DNA of 36,644 bases, from the IMG/VR virus record IMGVR_UViG_3300037420_001937, positions 1 through 36,644 of that record, one strand, 5' to 3'. The stretch comes from a virus (taxonomy: Duplodnaviria > Caudoviricetes). Made by a program: the position numbers and the translations under genes. Below are positions 669 through 36,157 of the stretch, in pieces. The first letter of the stretch is position 1; the number at the start of each line of letters is the position of its first letter. The notes under the pieces were generated by a model. The model was not told the origin of the DNA, searched no databases, and saw only the letters and a program-made list of their open reading frames with translations.

Positions 669-710
669 CCTCAACCGTAGCTGAGCCCCGGCCAGGTGCA
701 ACTCAGCGGC
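669..710 (-). promoter_or_regulatory. Promoter/operator-like motif, copy 2
   Basis: Same 15-mer and CAGCGGC as 122-160; GCTGAG/CTCAGC inverted repeat; minus-strand TTGCAC-16-TACGGT. Confidence 0.45.
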
Positions 711-1353
711 GAAACAGGCCCCCCTTCCGCGGCACCAGGAGCGGCTGGTAGGACTGCGGCGACGCCTGAGGCGAGGCGGTCACCGACGCGGTCACGGGAG
801 CCGGCGTGTAAACCACGCGCTCGATCACTGTCGCCGGCGACGAGCTGGGCGCCAGGGTGACGGCCGCCGTCTGCGTGGTGCGCGGGATCCGAATCCAGGC
901 GTCGCCGTGCTTGGCCAGGCACCGTCCGATTCGGCCGGCGGCCCGCCCCAGCAGGCCCGGCTCGTGGACCTCCCCGGTGTACGTCGACGTCGCGGGGGCA
1001 GGCGTCGGGGCGGCCGCGGCCGGGGCGGGTGCTGGCGGCGGAGCGGGTGCGGGCTGGACCGGGAGCGTCACCGGCTCCTCGTACTCGTACACGTGGTGCA
1101 CCACCTTGCGGCTGACCGTCGCCGGCGGCGGAGGGGGAGGCGGCGGAGCGGGCGCCGGTGTCGGTGTCGGTGTCGGGGTCGCCGGCTGGATGGGGAGCGT
1201 GACCGCCTCGGTGGGGGGGAGGACGGGCCGGGCCCTGGGCACCGGCGGCGGGGGCGGAGCCGTATCGTTGGCCGTGGGGATCTGCTTGCTGGGAGCAGCC
1301 CCATCGGCAGGATTGCCCCCCGCCAGCGCGAGGAGCAGGAGGAACGCGTTCAT
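703..1353 (-). CDS. Secreted Pro/Ala/Thr-rich low-complexity protein (216 aa)
   Basis: GAGG RBS; signal peptide MNAFLLLLALAGG; poly-Pro and PT/PA repeats. Confidence 0.75.
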   Translation of the reverse strand: MNAFLLLLALAGGNPADGAAPSKQIPTANDTAPPPPPVPRARPVLPPTEAVTLPIQPATPTPTPTPAPAPPPPPPPPATVSRKVVHHVYEYEEPVTLPVQPAPAPPPAPAPAAAAPTPAPATSTYTGEVHEPGLLGRAAGRIGRCLAKHGDAWIRIPRTTQTAAVTLAPSSSPATVIERVVYTPAPVTASVTASPQASPQSYQPLLVPRKGGLFRR

Positions 1354-4002: not shown

Positions 4003-4485
4003 ATGGCTACCGTATCACACGATCCCCTGGCTGTGAACTGGGATCTAGTCGACCTGGTCCCGCCCGAGGCCGACGAGCTCGATGAGATCCTCGACGTCTT
4101 CGGCGACAACGCCAACCTGGGGCTGCTCCAGTATGAGGACCGGCCGTCGTTCGCCAGCTACCTCGAGCTCCAGGCGAGCCGGTACCGCTCGCAGGAGGAC
4201 GAGTGGGCAGTGTATCTGGCCGGGCTGATCCAGGCCGCCGCCGACAACGCCCGCCGGCACCAGGCGACGACGCCGGCGGAGCTCGAAGCCCGCCAGGAGC
4301 TCGAGGACGACGAGCGGGACGCCAACCTGGTGGCCCGGGGCTACGACCAGTGCCTCGCCGAGCTGCAGGGCGATCCCCTGGCCCGGTACCACCGGCAGCG
4401 GCGCGAGGACCTGGCCGAGGGCCGGCGGGAGACGGCGCGGCGGGAGGAGCGGCTGCGGCAGATCATGAGCGGCTTCGGCGAGTAA
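4003..4485 (+). CDS. Hypothetical acidic early protein
   Basis: AAGGA RBS, ATG 4003 (MATVSHDP); first gene of early operon. Confidence 0.75.
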   Translation: MATVSHDPLAVNWDLVDLVPPEADELDEILDVFGDNANLGLLQYEDRPSFASYLELQASRYRSQEDEWAVYLAGLIQAAADNARRHQATTPAELEARQELEDDERDANLVARGYDQCLAELQGDPLARYHRQRREDLAEGRRETARREERLRQIMSGFGE

Positions 4486-4545
4486 CCAGCCTAACCAGGC
4501 CCGGCCGGCGACGAGCTGGCCGGGCCGCTGACAGGAGCGACGACA

Positions 4546-4770
4546 ATGCGCCTTGATCCCTATCAGCGAGTCGAAGCCCTGCTCAAGACGATCGACAAGA
4601 AGCTCGAGCGGGCGACGTGCTGGGACCAGACCTCGCAGACCGTGGACGGCCGGGCCAACGCGATCAACGAACTGATCGAGGGCCTCGGGCACGCCTGCCA
4701 GGCGATCAGGATCCTCAGCGATCAGACCAAGATGTGCGACGAGCACATCGGACGGATGCTGCCCAAGTAA
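4546..4770 (+). CDS. Hypothetical coiled-coil protein (74 aa)
   Basis: AGGAG RBS; heptad pattern. Confidence 0.75.
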   Translation: MRLDPYQRVEALLKTIDKKLERATCWDQTSQTVDGRANAINELIEGLGHACQAIRILSDQTKMCDEHIGRMLPK

Positions 4771-9101: not shown

Positions 9102-10025
9102 ATGGCTGCGATCGCCTACCCGACCTTCCAGCGCAGGCTGCTCAAGCTCTACGAGCCTCCCCAGCGGGCCCCGAAGACCTTCGGCCGCATGGCCCATGTG
9201 CTGACGCTCGTCGGGGCATTGGACGATCCGCTCGTCCGCACGACCGAGGACCTGACCCAGGATCTCGTGTCGTCGTATGTGTGCTCGAGGACGGTCCGGG
9301 CGAACACCGTGCTCGGGGAGCTCGGGTACCTCAAGGCCGCCTGTTGCTGGGCGGAGGACGAGGGGTACCTGAGGCAGAACCCGTTCCGCGGCAAGCGGAA
9401 GAGCCCGACCGCGTGGATCCGTCCGGAGCCGCCCCGCCAGAAGCCCTGGCACCCCCATGCCGACCTGGTCCGGCTCCTGGCCTACCTGGAAACCCAGGCG
9501 GGCGACTGGCAGGGACACCGGCTCTACGCGCTGACGTGCCTGGTGGCGCTGACGGGCCTGAGGCGCGAGGAGGCCCTGCACGTCCAGCTCGAGGACATCG
9601 ACTGGTCGTATCCCGTGCTCCGCGTCATGGGCCGCCGCCGGCTGAAGACCTACGACAGCGCGGCGCCGGTCCCGATCGCCGGGCAGCTGGACGAGGTCCT
9701 GCGGTCCTGGCTGCCCCATGCTGGTCCCCTCTGGCTGTTCCCGGGCGTGCGGCGGACCAGTCCCTGGGTGTACGCCGCGAACGGGTACCGGCCGCTCGAC
9801 CGGCTCGCCCGGGCCGGCGAGGCGGTCGGGATCCAGGGTCTCACGTTCCAGAGTCTCCGGCACAGCTGGGCGACCCATGCCGAGAGCAACTGGCAGCTCC
9901 GCGATGCGCTCATCCAGCGTTGCCTGCGGCACACGACGCCGATGACCTCGAAGCACTACAAGCACGCCGACCTGGTCAACCTCGTCGCCGCCGTGCGGCA
10001 CATCGGCTACCGGCCGAGTGCCTGA
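9102..10025 (+). CDS. int: Tyrosine recombinase/integrase
   Basis: GGAG RBS; TGLRREEAL (R), LKT (K), QSLRHSWAT (HxxR with H to Q), LRH, KHY (catalytic Tyr). Confidence 0.93.
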   Translation: MAAIAYPTFQRRLLKLYEPPQRAPKTFGRMAHVLTLVGALDDPLVRTTEDLTQDLVSSYVCSRTVRANTVLGELGYLKAACCWAEDEGYLRQNPFRGKRKSPTAWIRPEPPRQKPWHPHADLVRLLAYLETQAGDWQGHRLYALTCLVALTGLRREEALHVQLEDIDWSYPVLRVMGRRRLKTYDSAAPVPIAGQLDEVLRSWLPHAGPLWLFPGVRRTSPWVYAANGYRPLDRLARAGEAVGIQGLTFQSLRHSWATHAESNWQLRDALIQRCLRHTTPMTSKHYKHADLVNLVAAVRHIGYRPSA

Positions 10026-20114: not shown

Positions 20115-20327
20115 TCAGGAGGGCCTGGAAGACCGGGTCTCGGTGGCTGGCTCGGACGCAGCCTCGAAGCGGATCCCGTGGTCGCCGGGATAGGGCAGGC
20201 GGTGATCGTGGCGGGCGAGCAGGATGGCGTCGGGGATCCCCTCGGGGAATGCCGTGCACCGCATCGTCCCATACGGGGCCGAACGGTCGAGGTGCTTGCA
20301 TTCGAGGCACTGGGGGAAGATGGTCAC
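20115..20327 (-). CDS. Small Cys/His protein, candidate immunity or partner protein (70 aa)
   Basis: GTGA overlap; [16 protein letters not shown]....[14 protein letters not shown]. Confidence 0.8.
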
Positions 20328-21667
20328 GGGGTCGGCCCCTTGAGCTTCGCGTAGAACGCCATCACCCACGTATTATACGTCTTCCCGGCCTTCAGTCCCG
20401 CATAAACCTCGGCCACGAACTCGAGCGGGTGCGTGGCGGCGTACCGGCTCACCTCGGTGGCGATCCTCGCCTGCTGTGCTGGCTTGAATTGCGATCCTCT
20501 GAGCGACTTCACCACGACGGCATCGTGCTGCGCGTGGGCCAGCTCGTGATGGATGATGTGATCCTCCGCCGTGCTGGAGAACCAGCCTTTTCCGCCGGCG
20601 TTCGCCATGTACGTGGCCGGGTCACTCCAGTACGGGTGCTTCTCGTTGATGTAAAGCGTTCCATCTTTGGGGCGGAAGGCCGCGATGACCCTGTTGACCG
20701 GCTGTCGCGTCCATGTCGCGATCGCGGCATGCCCATTGGGAGCGATGGGAACCCCGAGCGCCTGGGCGGCGGCGATCGCGCGCTGGATGGCCGGCGTGGC
20801 ACCGGGTGAAGGGACGGGTCCGGGAGCCGGAGGAGGCGCCTTCGCCGGCTGCTGGACCGGCGCCGGAGTCCGGGCGATCGATCGGGCCGGCACCTTCGCC
20901 GGCGGCGAGGCCTTCGGCCTGGGCCCTGGCTTCGGCTTGGGTGGGACGGGTGCCGTCGTCGGCGTCCCCTTTTGGCTTCGCTGGCTGGTGTCGTAAACCT
21001 CGATGTACTTCGAGAGCGGGTTGGGCTTCTGTCCCGGCGCGAGGTAATGGACCTTCCCGATCACGTAGCCGCCGCCGGGTCCTGGCCTCGCTCCCGGAGG
21101 CAGCGGTTGCGGTCCGGCGGAGGTGGCTCGCTGCGGCACGGGCTTCGTCGCCGACGGCAAGACCTTCGGCCTGGGCTCGGGCTTCGGCTTCGGCGTGACG
21201 TGGGTCCGCTTCCACCAGTCGCGCGCGTCGCGGGCGATCTTCTTGCGGCCGGCAGGGCTGATGCCGATCGTGTTCCGCACCGGCAGGGCGCGGGCGCCGT
21301 GCTTGTAGGCGTGGTACCCGAGGATCTTCGCCCAACTGGTCCGCCCGTGGCCCTTCCAGTAGAGCGTGGCGGCGCTCGCCGTCGTCCGCACGTCCAGGAG
21401 GTTGATCGTCCGCGACTCGGCGTAGTGCGGAATCAGCGGCGGGCCCTTGGCCCCATCCGGCCGGCTCTCCGGCTTCACCAGCTTGAGCTTCTTGCCGTCG
21501 ATCCCGATGCCCCGCCGGATCTCCCGCCGTTTGACCTCGAGCGCGATCTCGCCCAGACGCCGCCAGTAGGCCCGCCGGTCCGCCTCCGAGGCGCGGGCCC
21601 ACTCCGGCCCGGCCGGCTCCCACTCCTGGCCGGTGAGCCGGATATTGAGCGGTTCGGTGTTGGGCAT
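20324..21667 (-). CDS. gpG-like domain + Pro-rich linker + zincin metallopeptidase (447 aa)
   Basis: N-terminus paralogous to 19566-20096; C-terminal [30 protein letters not shown]. Confidence 0.8.
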
Positions 21668-30318: not shown

Positions 30319-31728
30319 CTAATCATTGAACGCGAACAATTGCCCCGCCGTGTCCGCATGGTTGGGGCTGTGCTTGAGCCGCTTGGCGAACTCGTCCTTG
30401 TCCTCGAGCTGGATCCGGCCCTTGTTGTCCTGCGTGTACCGGAGGCCTTGGAGCTCGGGGCGGATCTTCGCCAGGAGGTCAGGCCGGATCGCAAACGGGT
30501 GCTGGGGCACCGAGACGCCCGAGTCGAGGATGACCATACGCTTCGGGTCGAGGCGCTGACGCATCCGCCAGGCGGCAGCCGCGCGGAGGTTGGCGAACTT
30601 CTTGCCCCCTTCGTTCCCGCCGCGGTAAGGCCTCGCCCCGCGGATGCCGACCGCCTCGAGCCGGTTGCCGAAGTCGGCCCCGATGCCCGCCACATCCCAG
30701 CTGATCCGGTGATGCTCGACGCCCCAGCGCTGCGCCTTCAGGGCCGCCTTGTGGGCCGTGGTCTCGAAGTTCCAGTTGGGCGAGTGGTCCCAGTCCACGA
30801 TGCCGTTGTCGTCGCGGACCCCGATGACCGAGTCGTCGCCGCCGCGGCCCTCGCCCAGGTCGATGGCCAGCCGCATCGGGCCGGACCGCTTGTGGATCGT
30901 CTCGCCGGCGAGGTTGAGCCAGCCGGTGGGGATGACCGCTTCGATGCCCGAGTCCGGGAACAGTCCCAGGACGTGAGTCAGCCACCAGAGACTGTGCTCG
31001 CCGTAGTCGTTGCGGGCCTTGGCCAGCCAGGTCGCATCCGCCAGTCCCCAGGGCGACCTGGGCAGGTCGATGTGGGGCGACTCGAGCGAGCTGATCTGGA
31101 TGACCTGCGACAGGCCCGGCAGCGGCCGCTGACATCGCTCGTAGAACTGACCGAAGGGCCAAAGGGGGTTGCCGGTGGCGAGCAGCCGGGACGGGTTGAG
31201 GCTGTCGACGGCCTCCCAGATCGGATCGACGATCCCTGACGCTTCGTCCAGGATCGCGGCGACGTCGGCTCCGTGGTGGCCCGAGAACCGCTCCACCTTC
31301 GTCGTGGAATAGGCCAGGGCCTGCCAGCCCTCGCCCAGGTCGACCTTCAGCGGCGATCGCAACAGGCGGCCGCCCAGGGGCACTCGCGAGCCGCGGTAGG
31401 CCCGCTCGACTTCCTTCCAGAGCACTTCCTCGAGCTGCGTCTGGCTGGGGGCCGTGGCAACCACCAGGCTGCCCGGATGCTCGAGCAGGAACCAGTGAAG
31501 CAGGCCCGAGTCGACGAAGCTCTTGCCGACCCCGTTCCCCGTGTGGACGTACGTCGCCGGCGACTCGACGAACGACGTGCAGATATCCCTCTGCTTTGAC
31601 CAGTAGCCGACGTTCCCGAGCTGGTCCGGTTTGTCGCGACCGAGGATGGTTTCATTGAACCGGGCCGGGTCCGTCCGGCACGCTACCAGCTCCCGGGCGA
31701 TCGCCTCCCTCTCGCTCGCGCTGCTCAT
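30319..31728 (-). CDS. terL: Terminase large subunit
   Basis: Walker A TGNGVGKS, Walker B AILDEASG, motif III ATGNP, nuclease LAIDLG..GDDSV, SPNHAD. Confidence 0.96.
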   Translation of the reverse strand: MSSASEREAIARELVACRTDPARFNETILGRDKPDQLGNVGYWSKQRDICTSFVESPATYVHTGNGVGKSFVDSGLLHWFLLEHPGSLVVATAPSQTQLEEVLWKEVERAYRGSRVPLGGRLLRSPLKVDLGEGWQALAYSTTKVERFSGHHGADVAAILDEASGIVDPIWEAVDSLNPSRLLATGNPLWPFGQFYERCQRPLPGLSQVIQISSLESPHIDLPRSPWGLADATWLAKARNDYGEHSLWWLTHVLGLFPDSGIEAVIPTGWLNLAGETIHKRSGPMRLAIDLGEGRGGDDSVIGVRDDNGIVDWDHSPNWNFETTAHKAALKAQRWGVEHHRISWDVAGIGADFGNRLEAVGIRGARPYRGGNEGGKKFANLRAAAAWRMRQRLDPKRMVILDSGVSVPQHPFAIRPDLLAKIRPELQGLRYTQDNKGRIQLEDKDEFAKRLKHSPNHADTAGQLFAFND

Positions 31729-32062
31729 AGCGCCGGGCCGCCGCGATCAGGTCCCGAACCACGTCGGCCGCCGTCGGGGCGTCGCCGGCGTCACCATCGC
31801 GATCGAGCCGCTCTCGGGCCAGGTCGATCGACTGCTGGCGGAGGTTGAGGCTGTCGGCGGCCAGGATCGTCCGCAGCGCCATGATCCGCTCACGCGTGCT
31901 GGCCTTGCCGGAGCGCGAGAGCTTGTCGAGCCGCCGCAGGATCCGCATCCGCGACTTCGGCGAGATCGGCCAGGCCGCCCGGAACGCCTGGCGCTCGAGC
32001 GCCATCTCCGAGCGGCTGGGCGTGTCCTCCCCCTGGCCCCCTTCGCGCGATGACTCGTCCAC
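31652..32062 (-). CDS. Putative terminase small subunit
   Basis: Immediately upstream of terL; helical W.I...R..I / RERIMALRTILAADSLNL. Confidence 0.6.
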   Translation of the reverse strand: MDESSREGGQGEDTPSRSEMALERQAFRAAWPISPKSRMRILRRLDKLSRSGKASTRERIMALRTILAADSLNLRQQSIDLARERLDRDGDAGDAPTAADVVRDLIAAARRYEQREREGGDRPGAGSVPDGPGPVQ

Positions 32063-32297: not shown

Positions 32298-32546
32298 TCA
32301 GGGGACATGGTGTTCGTACGATTCGACGGGGGGCTTGGGCTGCGGGCGGGGGGGCCGCAGGTCGGCGAAGGTCCGCGCCAGGTGGCATGCGCCGACAACA
32401 ACGTGGTACAGGATCCCGACGACCAACGAGGCGCAGGTCAGGATGAGGACGGCCCGCTGGCTGGCCAGGCCTGAGCCAACCGCGAGCACGACGCCCACGC
32501 CGTCGGAGATCCAGCCCGGCAGACCGTGGAGGTGTCGATCGCTCAT
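32298..32546 (-). CDS. Two-TM membrane protein, holin-like
   Basis: GAGG RBS; hydrophobic GVGVVLAVGSGLA and AVLILTCASLVVGILYHVVVG. Confidence 0.6.
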   Translation of the reverse strand: MSDRHLHGLPGWISDGVGVVLAVGSGLASQRAVLILTCASLVVGILYHVVVGACHLARTFADLRPPRPQPKPPVESYEHHVP

Positions 32547-32590
32547 GACGCGCCTCGGTGCAGAGGGGAAGCCGTGGTTTGCGGGTCAGC

Positions 32591-32758
32591 TCAGCCGTTG
32601 ACGGTGCCGTTGGTGGCGTGGACGGCTCCGCCGATTCCGATGATCGCGCCGGCACCGAACAGGTCCTGCAGCGCGGCCGTCGGGTCGTGCTGGTTGAACA
32701 GGTGGTACAGCGCCAGGCCGACGAGACCGACCGCGGGAAGATACGTGAGCAGCTTCAC
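32591..32758 (-). CDS. Small two-TM protein, holin-like (55 aa)
   Basis: GTGA overlap with protease stop; LLTYLPAVGLVGLALYHLF and LFGAGAIIGIGGAV. Confidence 0.65.
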   Translation of the reverse strand: MKLLTYLPAVGLVGLALYHLFNQHDPTAALQDLFGAGAIIGIGGAVHATNGTVNG

Positions 32759-33600
32759 GGGGACACCTTCGCACAAAGCGTGGGGGTGAAGGTCAGCCGG
32801 TACTCGCCGGCTGCCGGGACGGTGAAATCGAGCTCGAAGGGCTCACACGAAACCGAAGGGTTGGAGGGGTCGCCGGCGGCCGCCGGCGGAGCCGTCGGCG
32901 TCGACGGGGCCGGCGGGCCGCAGAGGGCCTGGAAGACGGCAACGTCGCCAGGCTGGGGGCCCTTGATCGCACGGTCCAGGGTCGGGGCCATCAGGTTGCC
33001 CGGGCCGCTGTGACCGGCGCCGAGGATGTGGCCGAGCTCGTGGGCCATCATGAGCGTCATCGTATCGTCGTCGAGCTGCTCAGCCCGGTCGAAAGTCTGG
33101 TGCAGGACGCCGGTGTAGCCCCGGGTCGGGGGCAGCTCCGAGAGGGCCAGGACGTTCCACTGGCCGTCGATCGTCGCGGTCCTGGCCAGGATCTGGGCGG
33201 CGGAGGGGTCGCTGGTGGGCTCGAACTGCATCCCGCAGACAGCGGAGATCAGCCGGGTGGCGCGGAGGTAATTGGCCTCCACCCGCGCGGGGTCAACCCC
33301 CGGATAGGCGATCTGCTGGAAGTAGCGGAGCTTGCTCAGGCCCCAGTTGGGGGCGCCCAGACCCCAGGCGAGCGGCATCACGTCGGGGTGGGCGCAGCGG
33401 GGCCTGGCCAGGTGCGAGGTGACGCCGGCGTCGAGCTGGCCCGTCGCCGGCAGCCCGTGAAAGATCTGGTACCGCCGGAGCAGGACCTGCTCGCCCTCGT
33501 TGAGGGCCCAGCGGAGGAAGGCTTCCCCCATCGCCTCGAACTCGAGGGCGTGGCCGAGCTTCCACAGCACCTTGGCGACTTCGATCCAATCGGCGATCAT
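32755..33600 (-). CDS. Matrixin (M10A, MMP-like) metalloprotease with pro-domain and cysteine switch
   Basis: LRRYQIFHGLPATGQLD..PRCAHPDV pro-domain; HELGHILGAGH zinc site; LMAP Met-turn; DVAVFQALCG. Confidence 0.92.
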   Translation of the reverse strand: MIADWIEVAKVLWKLGHALEFEAMGEAFLRWALNEGEQVLLRRYQIFHGLPATGQLDAGVTSHLARPRCAHPDVMPLAWGLGAPNWGLSKLRYFQQIAYPGVDPARVEANYLRATRLISAVCGMQFEPTSDPSAAQILARTATIDGQWNVLALSELPPTRGYTGVLHQTFDRAEQLDDDTMTLMMAHELGHILGAGHSGPGNLMAPTLDRAIKGPQPGDVAVFQALCGPPAPSTPTAPPAAAGDPSNPSVSCEPFELDFTVPAAGEYRLTFTPTLCAKVSP

Positions 33601-33704
33601 TCCGGTCTCCAGGGTTCGAAGCCCATGCACACGACCCCGATCAGGATGCCCAGGATCACCCAGAGCAGCTCATGCCCGACGAGGGACAGGAACCGGCCGA
33701 TCAC
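33597..33704 (-). CDS. 35-aa single-TM peptide
   Basis: GTGA and ATGA overlaps on both sides; LLWVILGILIGVVCMGF. Confidence 0.65.
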   Translation of the reverse strand: MIGRFLSLVGHELLWVILGILIGVVCMGFEPWRPE

Positions 33705-34006
33705 GGCTTCCGGTACCCGAGCGACTTCAGGACCTGCAGGGCGTCGGACCAGGTCGGGAACGCCTTGCCGGTCTCTTGCTTGAACCGCGCGATCGCCTTG
33801 AGGAACTCGGACTCGTCGTCCTCGTACGGCGTGTCGCAGGTCGCCGGGTTGCGGGTGCCGCGCCGTTTGCTCACCGCGCCGGCCAGGCCGGCGCGGATCG
33901 TCTGCGCGGCCTTGGTACCCTTGGGCTGGGACTGGGCCAGCTTCGGCTCCGGTGGGAGACCGGGCGTGGCCCGGAGCAGGTCCAGGACGGGGGCGCGGCG
34001 AGCCAT
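33701..34006 (-). CDS. Homologue of a conserved planctomycete small protein
   Basis: NPATCDTPYEDDESEFLKAIARFKQETGKAFPTWSDALQVLKSLGYRK resembles the recalled DPTTCERDY..EFM.AM..YK..GR.FPTWSEVLEVL..LGYRK family. Confidence 0.75.
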   Translation of the reverse strand: MARRAPVLDLLRATPGLPPEPKLAQSQPKGTKAAQTIRAGLAGAVSKRRGTRNPATCDTPYEDDESEFLKAIARFKQETGKAFPTWSDALQVLKSLGYRKP

Positions 34007-34092: not shown

Positions 34093-34293
34093 TCAACTGT
34101 CGATCCGGCCGACGGTTGCGACAATCTCGAGCCGTTCCGTTTGCTCGCCCGCTTCCATCTCGAGATCGTCGAGGATTCGCGCGATCTGAGTGGTCGAGAG
34201 CCGGGTGAGCCGGGCGAGGGCCCGAAGGCCGATACCGGCCCGGTGGCAACGAAGAATGTCGAGGTTGCGTCGCCGGCGAAAGGAGGGAGTCAT
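34093..34293 (-). CDS. Small HTH protein
   Basis: RNLDILRCHRAGIGLRALARLTRLSTTQIARIL. Confidence 0.7.
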   Translation of the reverse strand: MTPSFRRRRNLDILRCHRAGIGLRALARLTRLSTTQIARILDDLEMEAGEQTERLEIVATVGRIDS

Positions 34294-34298
34294 CGTGG

Positions 34299-35048
34299 TC
34301 ACGCGGTCTGGAGGCCGTGCTGGTCCTGGTCTGCGGGCGGAGAAAAGTAGGTGTCCCAGCCCCATCGACGATCGCGGAGGCAGTAATGGGACCGTCGCTT
34401 GGACAGGTCCTGATCCTTGCATCCGGGACACACTGGCGGATCCGGCCAGCGGCGGAGGCCTCGACCGCAATCACAAGTGATCCGCAGCACCTTCCGGCGT
34501 TTGCCGCCGGCATGGCAGTGGCGGCAATGGACCGATGGCCGCGGGGCGGTGTCCACCTCGGACCAGGGCCAGAGCGCGTGCCCCATCAGCAGCACCGAGG
34601 GATAGGCCACGTCTTCGGGACGCAGCGGCAGCCCGCGGGCGCGCCGCCGCTCGGCGCGGCGGTTGACCAGCCGGGTCATCTCCTCGGTGAAGATCGCCGT
34701 GGCCGCCGGGCCCAACTCGCGGGAGGGAGTCCGCTCCACGGCCGGCGGCGGAGCGTCGTCCAGGATCCGGCGGCGCTTCCGGAGCCGGCGTTCCCACCGG
34801 AACGGCGGCAGGTCGCCGACCATGTCCAGGTCCAGGAGCCGGATCGCCTTGGCACTGAACGTCACGACCGGACCTTCCGGTCCGTCGCTCACGTCCAGCC
34901 AACCCATAATGTCTAGTTCACATAAGGAATCTGAGACATCAGACTCCGATTTCTCAAGCTGGACTGCGAGCGCGGCGACGCTCATCCAGGCGGCCGGCGC
35001 GTCGATGAGCGCGACCACCATCGGTGGCAAGTCGTGGGTGCGAATCAT
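34299..35048 (-). CDS. Winged-helix + Zn-finger protein, candidate late regulator
   Basis: WMSVAALAVQLEKSESDVSDSLCELDIMGWL; CRHC, CDC, CPGC, YCLRD; first gene of late strand. Confidence 0.7.
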   Translation of the reverse strand: MIRTHDLPPMVVALIDAPAAWMSVAALAVQLEKSESDVSDSLCELDIMGWLDVSDGPEGPVVTFSAKAIRLLDLDMVGDLPPFRWERRLRKRRRILDDAPPPAVERTPSRELGPAATAIFTEEMTRLVNRRAERRRARGLPLRPEDVAYPSVLLMGHALWPWSEVDTAPRPSVHCRHCHAGGKRRKVLRITCDCGRGLRRWPDPPVCPGCKDQDLSKRRSHYCLRDRRWGWDTYFSPPADQDQHGLQTA

Positions 35049-35230
35049 GGTGCGAGCCCCGGCGTCGGGGAATTGCCTATCTTCTCTACTCTACCATAGG
35101 CTCGATGTGACATGAGCCCTTGATCAGTACGAACGGGCTGCTAGACTGTCCAGGGCCGTTCGGGGCTGGACAGCGTAAAATGCCTGGCTTTCCGAAAGCC
35201 CCATCGGCATTGAGAAGGCGCAAGTAAACC

Positions 35231-35262
35231 CTTGCGCATCCGCAACGTTGCGGATGCGCAAG
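35231..35262. repeat. Perfect 32-bp palindrome, candidate serine recombinase site
   Basis: CTTGCGCATCCGCAAC|GTTGCGGATGCGCAAG, no spacer, 34 bp upstream of the recombinase. Confidence 0.9.
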
Positions 35263-35296
35263 AAACGGCGGTTCGAAGCCACTTTTCCGAGGTGCG

Positions 35297-36157
35297 ATGA
35301 TGACCAGGGCGATCCTCTCCTACCGCGTCTCGAGCGATGATCAGTCCGCGTCCGGCTGCGGGATCGGGGCTCAGCGGGATGCATGCATGCGTTACGTCGG
35401 CCGGGAAGGCTGGGAGGTGCTCGAGGAGATCGAGCGAGACGAGGGGGTCAAGGGAGAGACGCCGCTGGCGGACCGGCCCGAGCTGGTGGAGGCCGTCCAG
35501 CGGATGCGGCGGGGGGATGTGCTCCTGGTCTACAAGCGGGACCGGCTCTCGCGCGACCACATCGACCTGGCCCTGTTCGAGGCCATGCTCCGGCGCAAGG
35601 GGTGCCGGCTGGTCTCCGCCCTGGGCGAGGGGACCGAGCTGAACCCGGACGATCCGCTGGCCGTGCTGATCAAGGGCGTGGTCGACCTGTTCAGCAAGTT
35701 CGAGGTCATGATGATCCGGTTCCGAACGCGCGGTGCGTTGTTGGCCAAGCGCCGCAAGGGGGAGCGCAACGGCCAGACGCCTTACGGCTGGGACCTGCAC
35801 GATGACGGGCGCCGGTCCAAGGTCAAGATCGACAAGCGGACCGGCCAGGTGATCAGCGGCGGCAAGCCGATCGCGCTGGTACCCAACTCGGCCGAGCAGG
35901 CGGCGCTGCGGGCGATGGCCCGGATGCAGTCGGAGGGCTGCTCGCTGGCGGCGATCGCCGACTATCTCAACCGCCGGTCCATCTACACCAAGGCGGGCAA
36001 GCCATGGGCGCGCTCGAGCGTCAGCTACGTTTTGAAAGTGAGCGTCCCACTCCTTGAGGCGGAGCCCGATGGCGACGAAGCGGAAGGTCAGTCCACGCAC
36101 CCGGACCACCCTGGCGGACCAGCTCCGGGCGGCGATCCTGTCGACGGGCCTGTCTGA
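35297..36157 (+). CDS. Serine recombinase (catalytic plus short recombinase domain)
   Basis: YRVSSDDQ (catalytic Ser), DRPEL, LLVYKRDRLSRD, PYGW, SLAAIADYLN..T..GKPW. Confidence 0.93.
   Translation: MMTRAILSYRVSSDDQSASGCGIGAQRDACMRYVGREGWEVLEEIERDEGVKGETPLADRPELVEAVQRMRRGDVLLVYKRDRLSRDHIDLALFEAMLRRKGCRLVSALGEGTELNPDDPLAVLIKGVVDLFSKFEVMMIRFRTRGALLAKRRKGERNGQTPYGWDLHDDGRRSKVKIDKRTGQVISGGKPIALVPNSAEQAALRAMARMQSEGCSLAAIADYLNRRSIYTKAGKPWARSSVSYVLKVSVPLLEAEPDGDEAEGQSTHPDHPGGPAPGGDPVDGPV

Follow-up and report, generated by a model that had tools for sequence, protein, structure and literature searches.

The window analysed here, an IMG/VR virus record taken whole (36,644 bases, with direct repeats at its termini), encodes a zinc protease with the architecture of a pro-matrix-metalloproteinase (pro-MMP), set among small membrane protein genes ahead of terminase, and no recognisable endolysin or spanin. 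We think it probable that this protease is a lysin, released by holins, held back by a cysteine latch and acting on envelope protein, with both the lysis role and the substrate being predicted. The original prediction had proposed such a protease lysin; an exchangeable gene slot, the lack of any lysin match and a near-invariant cysteine switch speak for it, whereas the holin identity of the neighbouring genes fared less well.

The window contains integrases, replication proteins, terminase, and capsid and tail genes, and the majority of its genes are without annotation (PHROGs on 62 genes, Pfam on 80 ORFs). Key loci were called again with ORFs from all frames, some high-GC genes having been mis-framed by the gene caller. 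We read the record as complete, with the CheckV completeness estimate of 30% as a caveat, since integrase, replication, head and tail genes are all present and relatives with the same structural genes measure 35-37 kb. The virus occurs in soil and rhizosphere metagenomes, and no RNA run is listed among the sequencing runs that contain it. Given that the same cassette is present in the chromosome of Singulisphaera sp. PoT and that the named members of the 55-residue protein family described below are from Isosphaeraceae, we infer an Isosphaeraceae planctomycete as host; the phage is likely temperate. The head region contains a gene for a 447-residue protein (20324-21667, minus strand) ending in a second HExxH zincin-like domain, for which there was no Pfam match; presumably it resembles the peptidase-tipped minor head proteins. 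It is followed by a small Cys-rich gene (20115-20327, minus strand; phrog_33375), and the pair recurs in two relatives, G055 and G501.

The protease, 281 residues long, is encoded on the minus strand at 32755..33600 (ATG at 33600, stop at 32755). It consists of a helical prodomain (residues 1-75), a catalytic domain (residues 76-231), a Pro-rich linker and a short β-rich tail. The cysteine-switch motif PRCAHPDV occupies residues 67-74 and contains Cys69 (33379..33402, minus strand), the zinc-binding motif HExxHxxGxxH (HELGHILGAGH) spans residues 187-197 (33010..33042, minus strand), and the Met-turn is at Met204. The zinc motif and Met-turn define MMPs, in which the switch cysteine blocks the zinc until it is oxidised or the propeptide is cut away (PMC3102199, in the sections drawn on). 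Pfam Peptidase_M10 (PF00413) matches with 28.9 bits against a cut-off of 24. Sequence comparison with solved structures gives MMP proenzymes as the best relatives, which align across the switch and the catalytic domain, PRCAHPDV falling on the cysteine switch of human MMPs. The AlphaFold2 model has a pLDDT of 81, and its top matches in Foldseek and VIA are all pro-MMP structures; pro-MMP-2 aligns in VIA with a Z-score of 21.7 and an rmsd of 2.7 for 210 residues (model range 1-231), at 30% identity. No hydrophobic N-terminus, and hence no signal peptide, was seen in a hydropathy scan. Zinc motif, Met-turn, prodomain fold and cysteine switch together confirm, at the level of sequence and model, the signal-less pro-MMP (M10A) that had been proposed, with predicted latency and activity.

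The prodomain had been described as PGBD-like, and binding of peptidoglycan by it is not supported. PG_binding_1 (PF01471) scores only 13.1 bits on the protease (cut-off 23, E 0.11) and 37.2 bits on a jumbo-phage homologue (L016), but eukaryotic MMP clusters carry the same Pfam family, so a match to it does not show peptidoglycan binding. Nor did the protease match any known peptidoglycan hydrolase catalytic domain. The helices concerned are, moreover, missing from a short propeptide in 43 of the 157 homologues that have sequence before the catalytic domain, some of which may be database proteins with wrong starts, and from the Singulisphaera prophage protease, whose short propeptide is genuine; a longer start for the latter was examined and ruled out. 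The switch cysteine is retained in 41 of the 43 short-propeptide homologues. Thus, as judged from the alignment, the cysteine latch is conserved and the peptidoglycan-binding-like helices are not.

The protease family numbers 1,228 representatives at E up to 0.001 and is present on 155 viral contigs; the nearest ESM Atlas clusters are 82-100% viral. We aligned 161 of 162 proteins, including that of the window and leaving out one eukaryotic protein. The H, E, H and H of the zinc motif are invariant in 161/161 homologues, and the switch column is Cys in all 155 that have a residue there (six have a gap), a conservation that is partly selected because the homologues were picked by similarity to the query. 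A second cysteine, Cys122, is kept in 134/161; as speculation, it might pair with the switch cysteine after export. Three MMP homologues have an N-terminal signal-like segment and a C-terminal membrane segment. P0053, P0103 and P0129 have a C-terminal extension, a helical segment that looks amphipathic and resembles the small cassette genes, and a viral homologue in L080 (10019-10693) has a twin-arginine-like leader directly before the switch cysteine. Of 401 genomes from the phylum to which Singulisphaera belongs, the Singulisphaera sp. PoT prophage alone yielded the close family, and 40 others have distant M10 domains. The 50,697 GenBank phage records gave no match to the MMP or to the C1-like protease introduced below, and thus no cultured reference phage; plasmids gave no match to the C1-like protease.

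The cassette is on the minus strand, codirectional with the late structural genes. Four-base overlaps chain together the genes for a 101-residue soluble protein (33701..34006), a 35-residue single-transmembrane peptide (33597..33704; hydropathy 2.26), the protease, and a 55-residue two-helix membrane protein (32591..32758), the stop of the 35-residue peptide overlapping the protease start and the protease stop overlapping the start of the 55-residue protein. The gene for an 82-residue protein with two hydrophobic stretches (32298..32546) follows 44 bases on. Upstream, at 34093..35048, are two putative regulators: a 69-residue HTH protein with a weak match to a late transcriptional activator (phrog_836, E 0.001) and a 249-residue protein. 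Downstream, the terminase large subunit and probable small subunit (30319..32062; phrog_2, E 4.8e-29, the small subunit by position) mark the slot. The coupling of the protease to a membrane gene on either side, in a cassette before terminase, is as first described. No sigma-70 promoter was found near the cassette. A serine resolvase/recombinase (35297-36157, plus strand) is encoded opposite the late regulator, as in relatives L082 and L009, and a tyrosine integrase elsewhere (9102-10025, plus strand); between regulator and resolvase is a perfect 16-pair inverted repeat (35229-35264), a candidate terminator or recombination site.

In L082 and L360, too, the genes run regulator, small soluble gene, protease, two-helix gene, membrane gene, terminase, with a single-membrane peptide in addition in L082, and the Singulisphaera sp. 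PoT prophage and L360 share the gene order of the window. That prophage covers about 6.079-6.119 Mb of the chromosome, and its protease gene is at 6088808-6089422. The cassette precedes terminase in phages with different head modules. Homologues of the 101-residue protein are found at the same place in L082, L009 and L360, peptides like the 35-residue one lie directly before the protease in L082 and L002, and homologues of the 249-residue protein lie near it in the same two. On another contig, Singulisphaera sp. PoT has a cassette with a C1-like protease (L278, G100:C3:191767-195630), so that this strain has both versions.

The 35-, 55- and 82-residue proteins are all small, with at least one predicted transmembrane stretch each. 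The 55-residue protein is a holin candidate by family and neighbours; its family comprises 122 proteins, the named members coming from Singulisphaera, Aquisphaera and an Isosphaeraceae genome. The 82-residue protein is a second candidate by hydropathy and position, having positional counterparts in L082, L009 and L360 but no detectable sequence homologue. Two transmembrane segments had been assigned to each of these downstream genes; the 82-residue protein does have two hydrophobic stretches, but the second helix of the 55-residue protein is marginal (Kyte-Doolittle 19-mer maxima 1.71 and 1.22). No family match supports a holin identity for the small genes: none of the three matched a Pfam or PHROGs holin family, and relatives gave sub-threshold matches only. 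The nearest named ESM Atlas clusters are holins, at 0.81-0.82, which we treat as a lead only. A spanin-like or thioredoxin partner, seen in several C1 cassettes, is absent from the window.

No lysin or spanin family was matched in the window by PHROGs on 62 genes or by Pfam on 80 ORFs, and six-frame searches of the record found none of 12 lysin families. PF11860 likewise had no match, but had none in its controls either. These searches agree with the prediction that the window has no recognisable endolysin or spanin. Six-frame searches of MMP- and C1-bearing records found PF01510 in 0/48, PF00959 in 0/42, and PF01464, PF08291, PF01520 and PF13539 in 0/44 each; CHAP, NlpC/P60, GH25 and Hydrolase_2 were found in 0/5 records, and the 41 ORFs of the Singulisphaera prophage matched no lysin family. 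For a base rate, we used 22 viral records of at least 31 kb out of 65 matched by two arbitrary DNA words, and compared them with 25 test records (14 with M10, ten with only a C1-like protease, and G055). PF01510, PF00959, PF00182 and PF05838 were found in 0/25 test records and in 10/22 arbitrary records (Fisher p 1.2e-4, uncorrected for kinship), where one of the ten positives is below the curated cut-off and two share a source genome, the two sets are non-independent draws with different hosts, and divergent lysins could escape Pfam. A weak M23 match in one of the 25 test records (G024) is inside an RNA-polymerase-like ORF and so is false. On these sequence comparisons, the scans show that these phages are without recognisable lysins, which does not by itself make the protease their lysin.

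We searched for relatives in two ways that were blind to the protease, by terminase and by the 55-residue gene. The terminase search gave 15 distinct loci in a wider scan and seven relatives with the slot intact, L124 being excluded as the alignment seed. Four of the seven have a protease in the slot: a C1-like enzyme in L094 and L097 (the latter also with a homologue of the 55-residue gene), a pro-MMP in L103 and a prodomain-less M10 enzyme in L096. In L324, a CAP-domain gene (4192-4620; PF00188, 55 bits) occupies the slot among four membrane genes, which suggests a lysis-linked role for CAP domains. In G055 (72% complete) and G501 (90%), which share the window's structural genes, the slot lacks protease and membrane genes alike; these two phages are possibly defective, or else the cassette is perhaps an accessory. 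ORFs in the G055 slot and after the L096 protease were considered as MMP-tail remnants (6.8 and 10.8 bits, shuffle maxima 3.9 and 3.6) and rejected, the similarity being not significant in the full ORF set. ORFs in L101 (8808-9344) and L096 (8133-8405) end in a segment like the β-rich MMP tail, with weak scores and no protease domain. The window also encodes a Pro/Ala-rich protein with a signal-like N-terminus (703-1353, minus strand); most relatives (L082, L003, L004, L096, L101, L325), even those without a cassette, encode similar proteins some kilobases upstream of the slot.

The search by the 55-residue gene gave 30 viral loci, with a protease-like gene beside it in 26: 23 papain-fold enzymes of about five lineages, one C1-like enzyme, one pro-MMP and one astacin, the last above the Pfam cut-off. 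No enzyme was seen at three loci, and one is about 1.5 kb from a canonical endolysin gene, Peptidase_M15_3. The 23 papain-fold enzymes are exported proteins with a Cys, His, Asp motif, often with an N-terminal membrane segment. Their catalytic domain has a predicted papain fold (pLDDT 66), for which PeiR is the top structural match (8z4h; Z 12.3, rmsd 3.6, 154 residues aligned), with the next matches within about 1. Profile searches with the two papain-like families gave no relative of solved structure, and the two profiles did not align to each other; the C1-like family was called from Gln/Cys, His and SWG motifs together with sub-threshold Pfam matches. Thus, the slot beside the 55-residue gene exchanges four protease families: pro-MMP, astacin and two with a papain fold. 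That M10 genes would be found in an exchangeable slot had been set as a test beforehand, and they are, both with and without a prodomain.

Beyond the slot, membrane genes are found beside MMP genes in 20/56 near positions and 25/144 far ones (p 0.008), and beside the C1-like enzyme in 43/72 and 24/146, respectively. The enrichment beside MMPs is therefore modest, far below that beside the C1-like enzyme. By lineage, the MMP has a predicted membrane neighbour in 11 of 18 and none in seven. One homologue is among head-tail connector genes (L071), and several in large phages are near structural genes without membrane neighbours. A clade of ~200-kb phages has the MMP and C1-like proteases within one block of membrane genes. 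Jumbo phages have a C1-like gene in the flank of 62/81 MMP loci, while small phages have one family or the other, not both. The ~200-kb clade also encodes an RNA-polymerase-subunit-like protein (L311, 895-2775).

If an MMP-type protease stands in for the endolysin of this cassette, its genes would be expressed late and the signal-less protease would accumulate in the cytoplasm in inactive form. The small membrane proteins, as putative holins, would make lesions through which it is released. Outside the cytoplasm the latch would open, once Cys69 is oxidised or the propeptide removed, and the active protease would then cut envelope protein. Extracytoplasmic action is supported by the signal-bearing MMP homologues and the membrane-anchored papain-fold occupants, which parallel the exported endolysins of other phages. 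We favour envelope proteins as the target, in a protein-rich layer or as outer-membrane tethers, over peptidoglycan cross-links, since the enzymes occupying the slot belong to families that cut proteins, and the peptidoglycan-binding-like helices can be dispensed with. To our knowledge, no M10 enzyme cuts peptidoglycan. Planctomycete walls were first described as protein-dominated (PMC12673574, in part), but planctomycetes have peptidoglycan sacculi that are sensitive to lysozyme (PMC4432640, in part), and so something must still breach the peptidoglycan.

It is unlikely, in our judgement, that the protease is an accessory which weakens the envelope or processes a partner, the essential lysis functions being those of the membrane genes with a host autolysin or an unrecognised phage enzyme. 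The two close relatives without any cassette suggest that the module may be accessory, and the CAP domain in place of a protease in a third, the joint occurrence of MMP and C1-like enzymes in jumbo phages (62/81 MMP loci), the many unannotated genes of the window and the precedent of a phage metzincin (Listeria Mtz-Tim; PMC8235301, in part) all fit such a role. However, the window cassette has no enzyme-like gene besides the MMP, the searches gave no canonical lysin that it could assist, and small phages hold a single protease family.

That the protease is virion-associated, serving head maturation or entry across a protein-rich surface, is quite improbable. A timed maturation step would be well served by a zymogen latch, the β-rich tail, which is conserved, could dock on the particle, and one homologue is found among head-tail connector genes, with several in large phages near structural genes. 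The gene of the window is outside the head module, however, and its coupling to membrane genes and replacement by enzymes with signal-like segments do not fit a virion component. Also against a maturation role, the cassette keeps its position ahead of terminase even where the head modules are unrelated; two of these phages (G002 and G004) have a prohead-protease-like gene of their own, which we take to be such from its place between portal and capsid and its sequence character. We give equally little credence to a cargo gene, placed here by chance, whose latent product would act in the cytoplasm on a host defence or regulatory protein or remodel the lysogen surface. Such a gene would need no signal peptide and could occupy a variable slot that is dispensable in two relatives, and the distant M10 domains in 40/401 planctomycete genomes are possible donors; yet the close family occurs among these genomes only in a prophage, the genes are codirectional with the late structural genes, and one and the same membrane gene is accompanied by four protease families that are unrelated to each other.

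Lysis by the protease, the reading we prefer, can be extended to planctomycete phages as a group. These would have dropped muralytic endolysins in favour of interchangeable proteases with one holin family, and the animal-type cysteine switch of the MMP would serve as a lysis timer, opened on leaving the reducing cytoplasm. We regard this wider proposal as tentative, a possibility that we would not yet call probable; if true, the load-bearing layer of the planctomycete envelope would be protein, and phages would possess an established enzyme family with the complete pro-MMP architecture. If the protease is the lysin, phage lysis would gain an enzyme class, along with a novel means of silencing a lysin until release. 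Since what a phage lysin cuts reveals the layer that has to give way, it would become testable which of the two, protein or peptidoglycan, keeps the planctomycete envelope intact. A test would require no new isolate, as the cultured lysogen Singulisphaera sp. PoT has the same cassette.

Vertebrate pro-MMPs (MEROPS M10A; pro-MMP-2 1ck7, pro-MMP-1 1su3, pro-MMP-10 9csx, matrilysin) have in common with the window protease the prodomain, catalytic domain, cysteine switch, HExxHxxGxxH motif and Met-turn. The window protease differs in being phage-encoded, in having no signal peptide, and in having a Pro linker and short β-rich tail in place of the hemopexin domain; in about a quarter of homologues the helical prodomain is lost and the cysteine stays. 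Karilysin has a non-vertebrate MMP catalytic domain, but it aligns only from residue 66 of the model onward, and the MMPs of insect viruses, also non-vertebrate, are from animal viruses. In the lambdoid S-R-Rz/Rz1 cassette, small membrane genes and a signal-less enzyme lie between the late regulator and terminase. The window has a like arrangement, with membrane genes coupled to a signal-less enzyme, but this is a protein-type protease with a zymogen latch rather than a muralytic enzyme, and no spanin pair or holin family was detected. The pseudomurein endoisopeptidases (Pei) are papain-fold peptidases with a lytic role as viral lysins; the likeness to PeiR concerns the papain-fold occupants of other phages, not the zinc protease of the window, and the fold shows no substrate.

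The literature searched (subscription papers outside its scope) gave no published MMP-type protease lysin, and the terms Planctomyc, M10, matrixin and papain are all absent from the main text of a survey published in 2025 on the lytic proteins of viruses (PMC12596118). The closest system is Listeria Mtz, a metzincin of phage origin encoded close to lysis genes, with effects on both the cell envelope and lysis; it is secreted, works with the TIMP-like lipoprotein Tim and accompanies a canonical holin-lysin pair (PMC8235301, in part). In contrast, the window protease has no signal, TIMP-like partner or detected lysin. Host exit by cutting envelope protein is thus apparently an undescribed route. 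The protein itself is a member of the M10 family; employed as a lysin, it would make for a novel version of the holin-enzyme cassette. What is new here is a minimal, MMP-only cassette and the swapping of four protease families beside one membrane gene, together with a base-rate control, counter-examples and a cultured lysogen.
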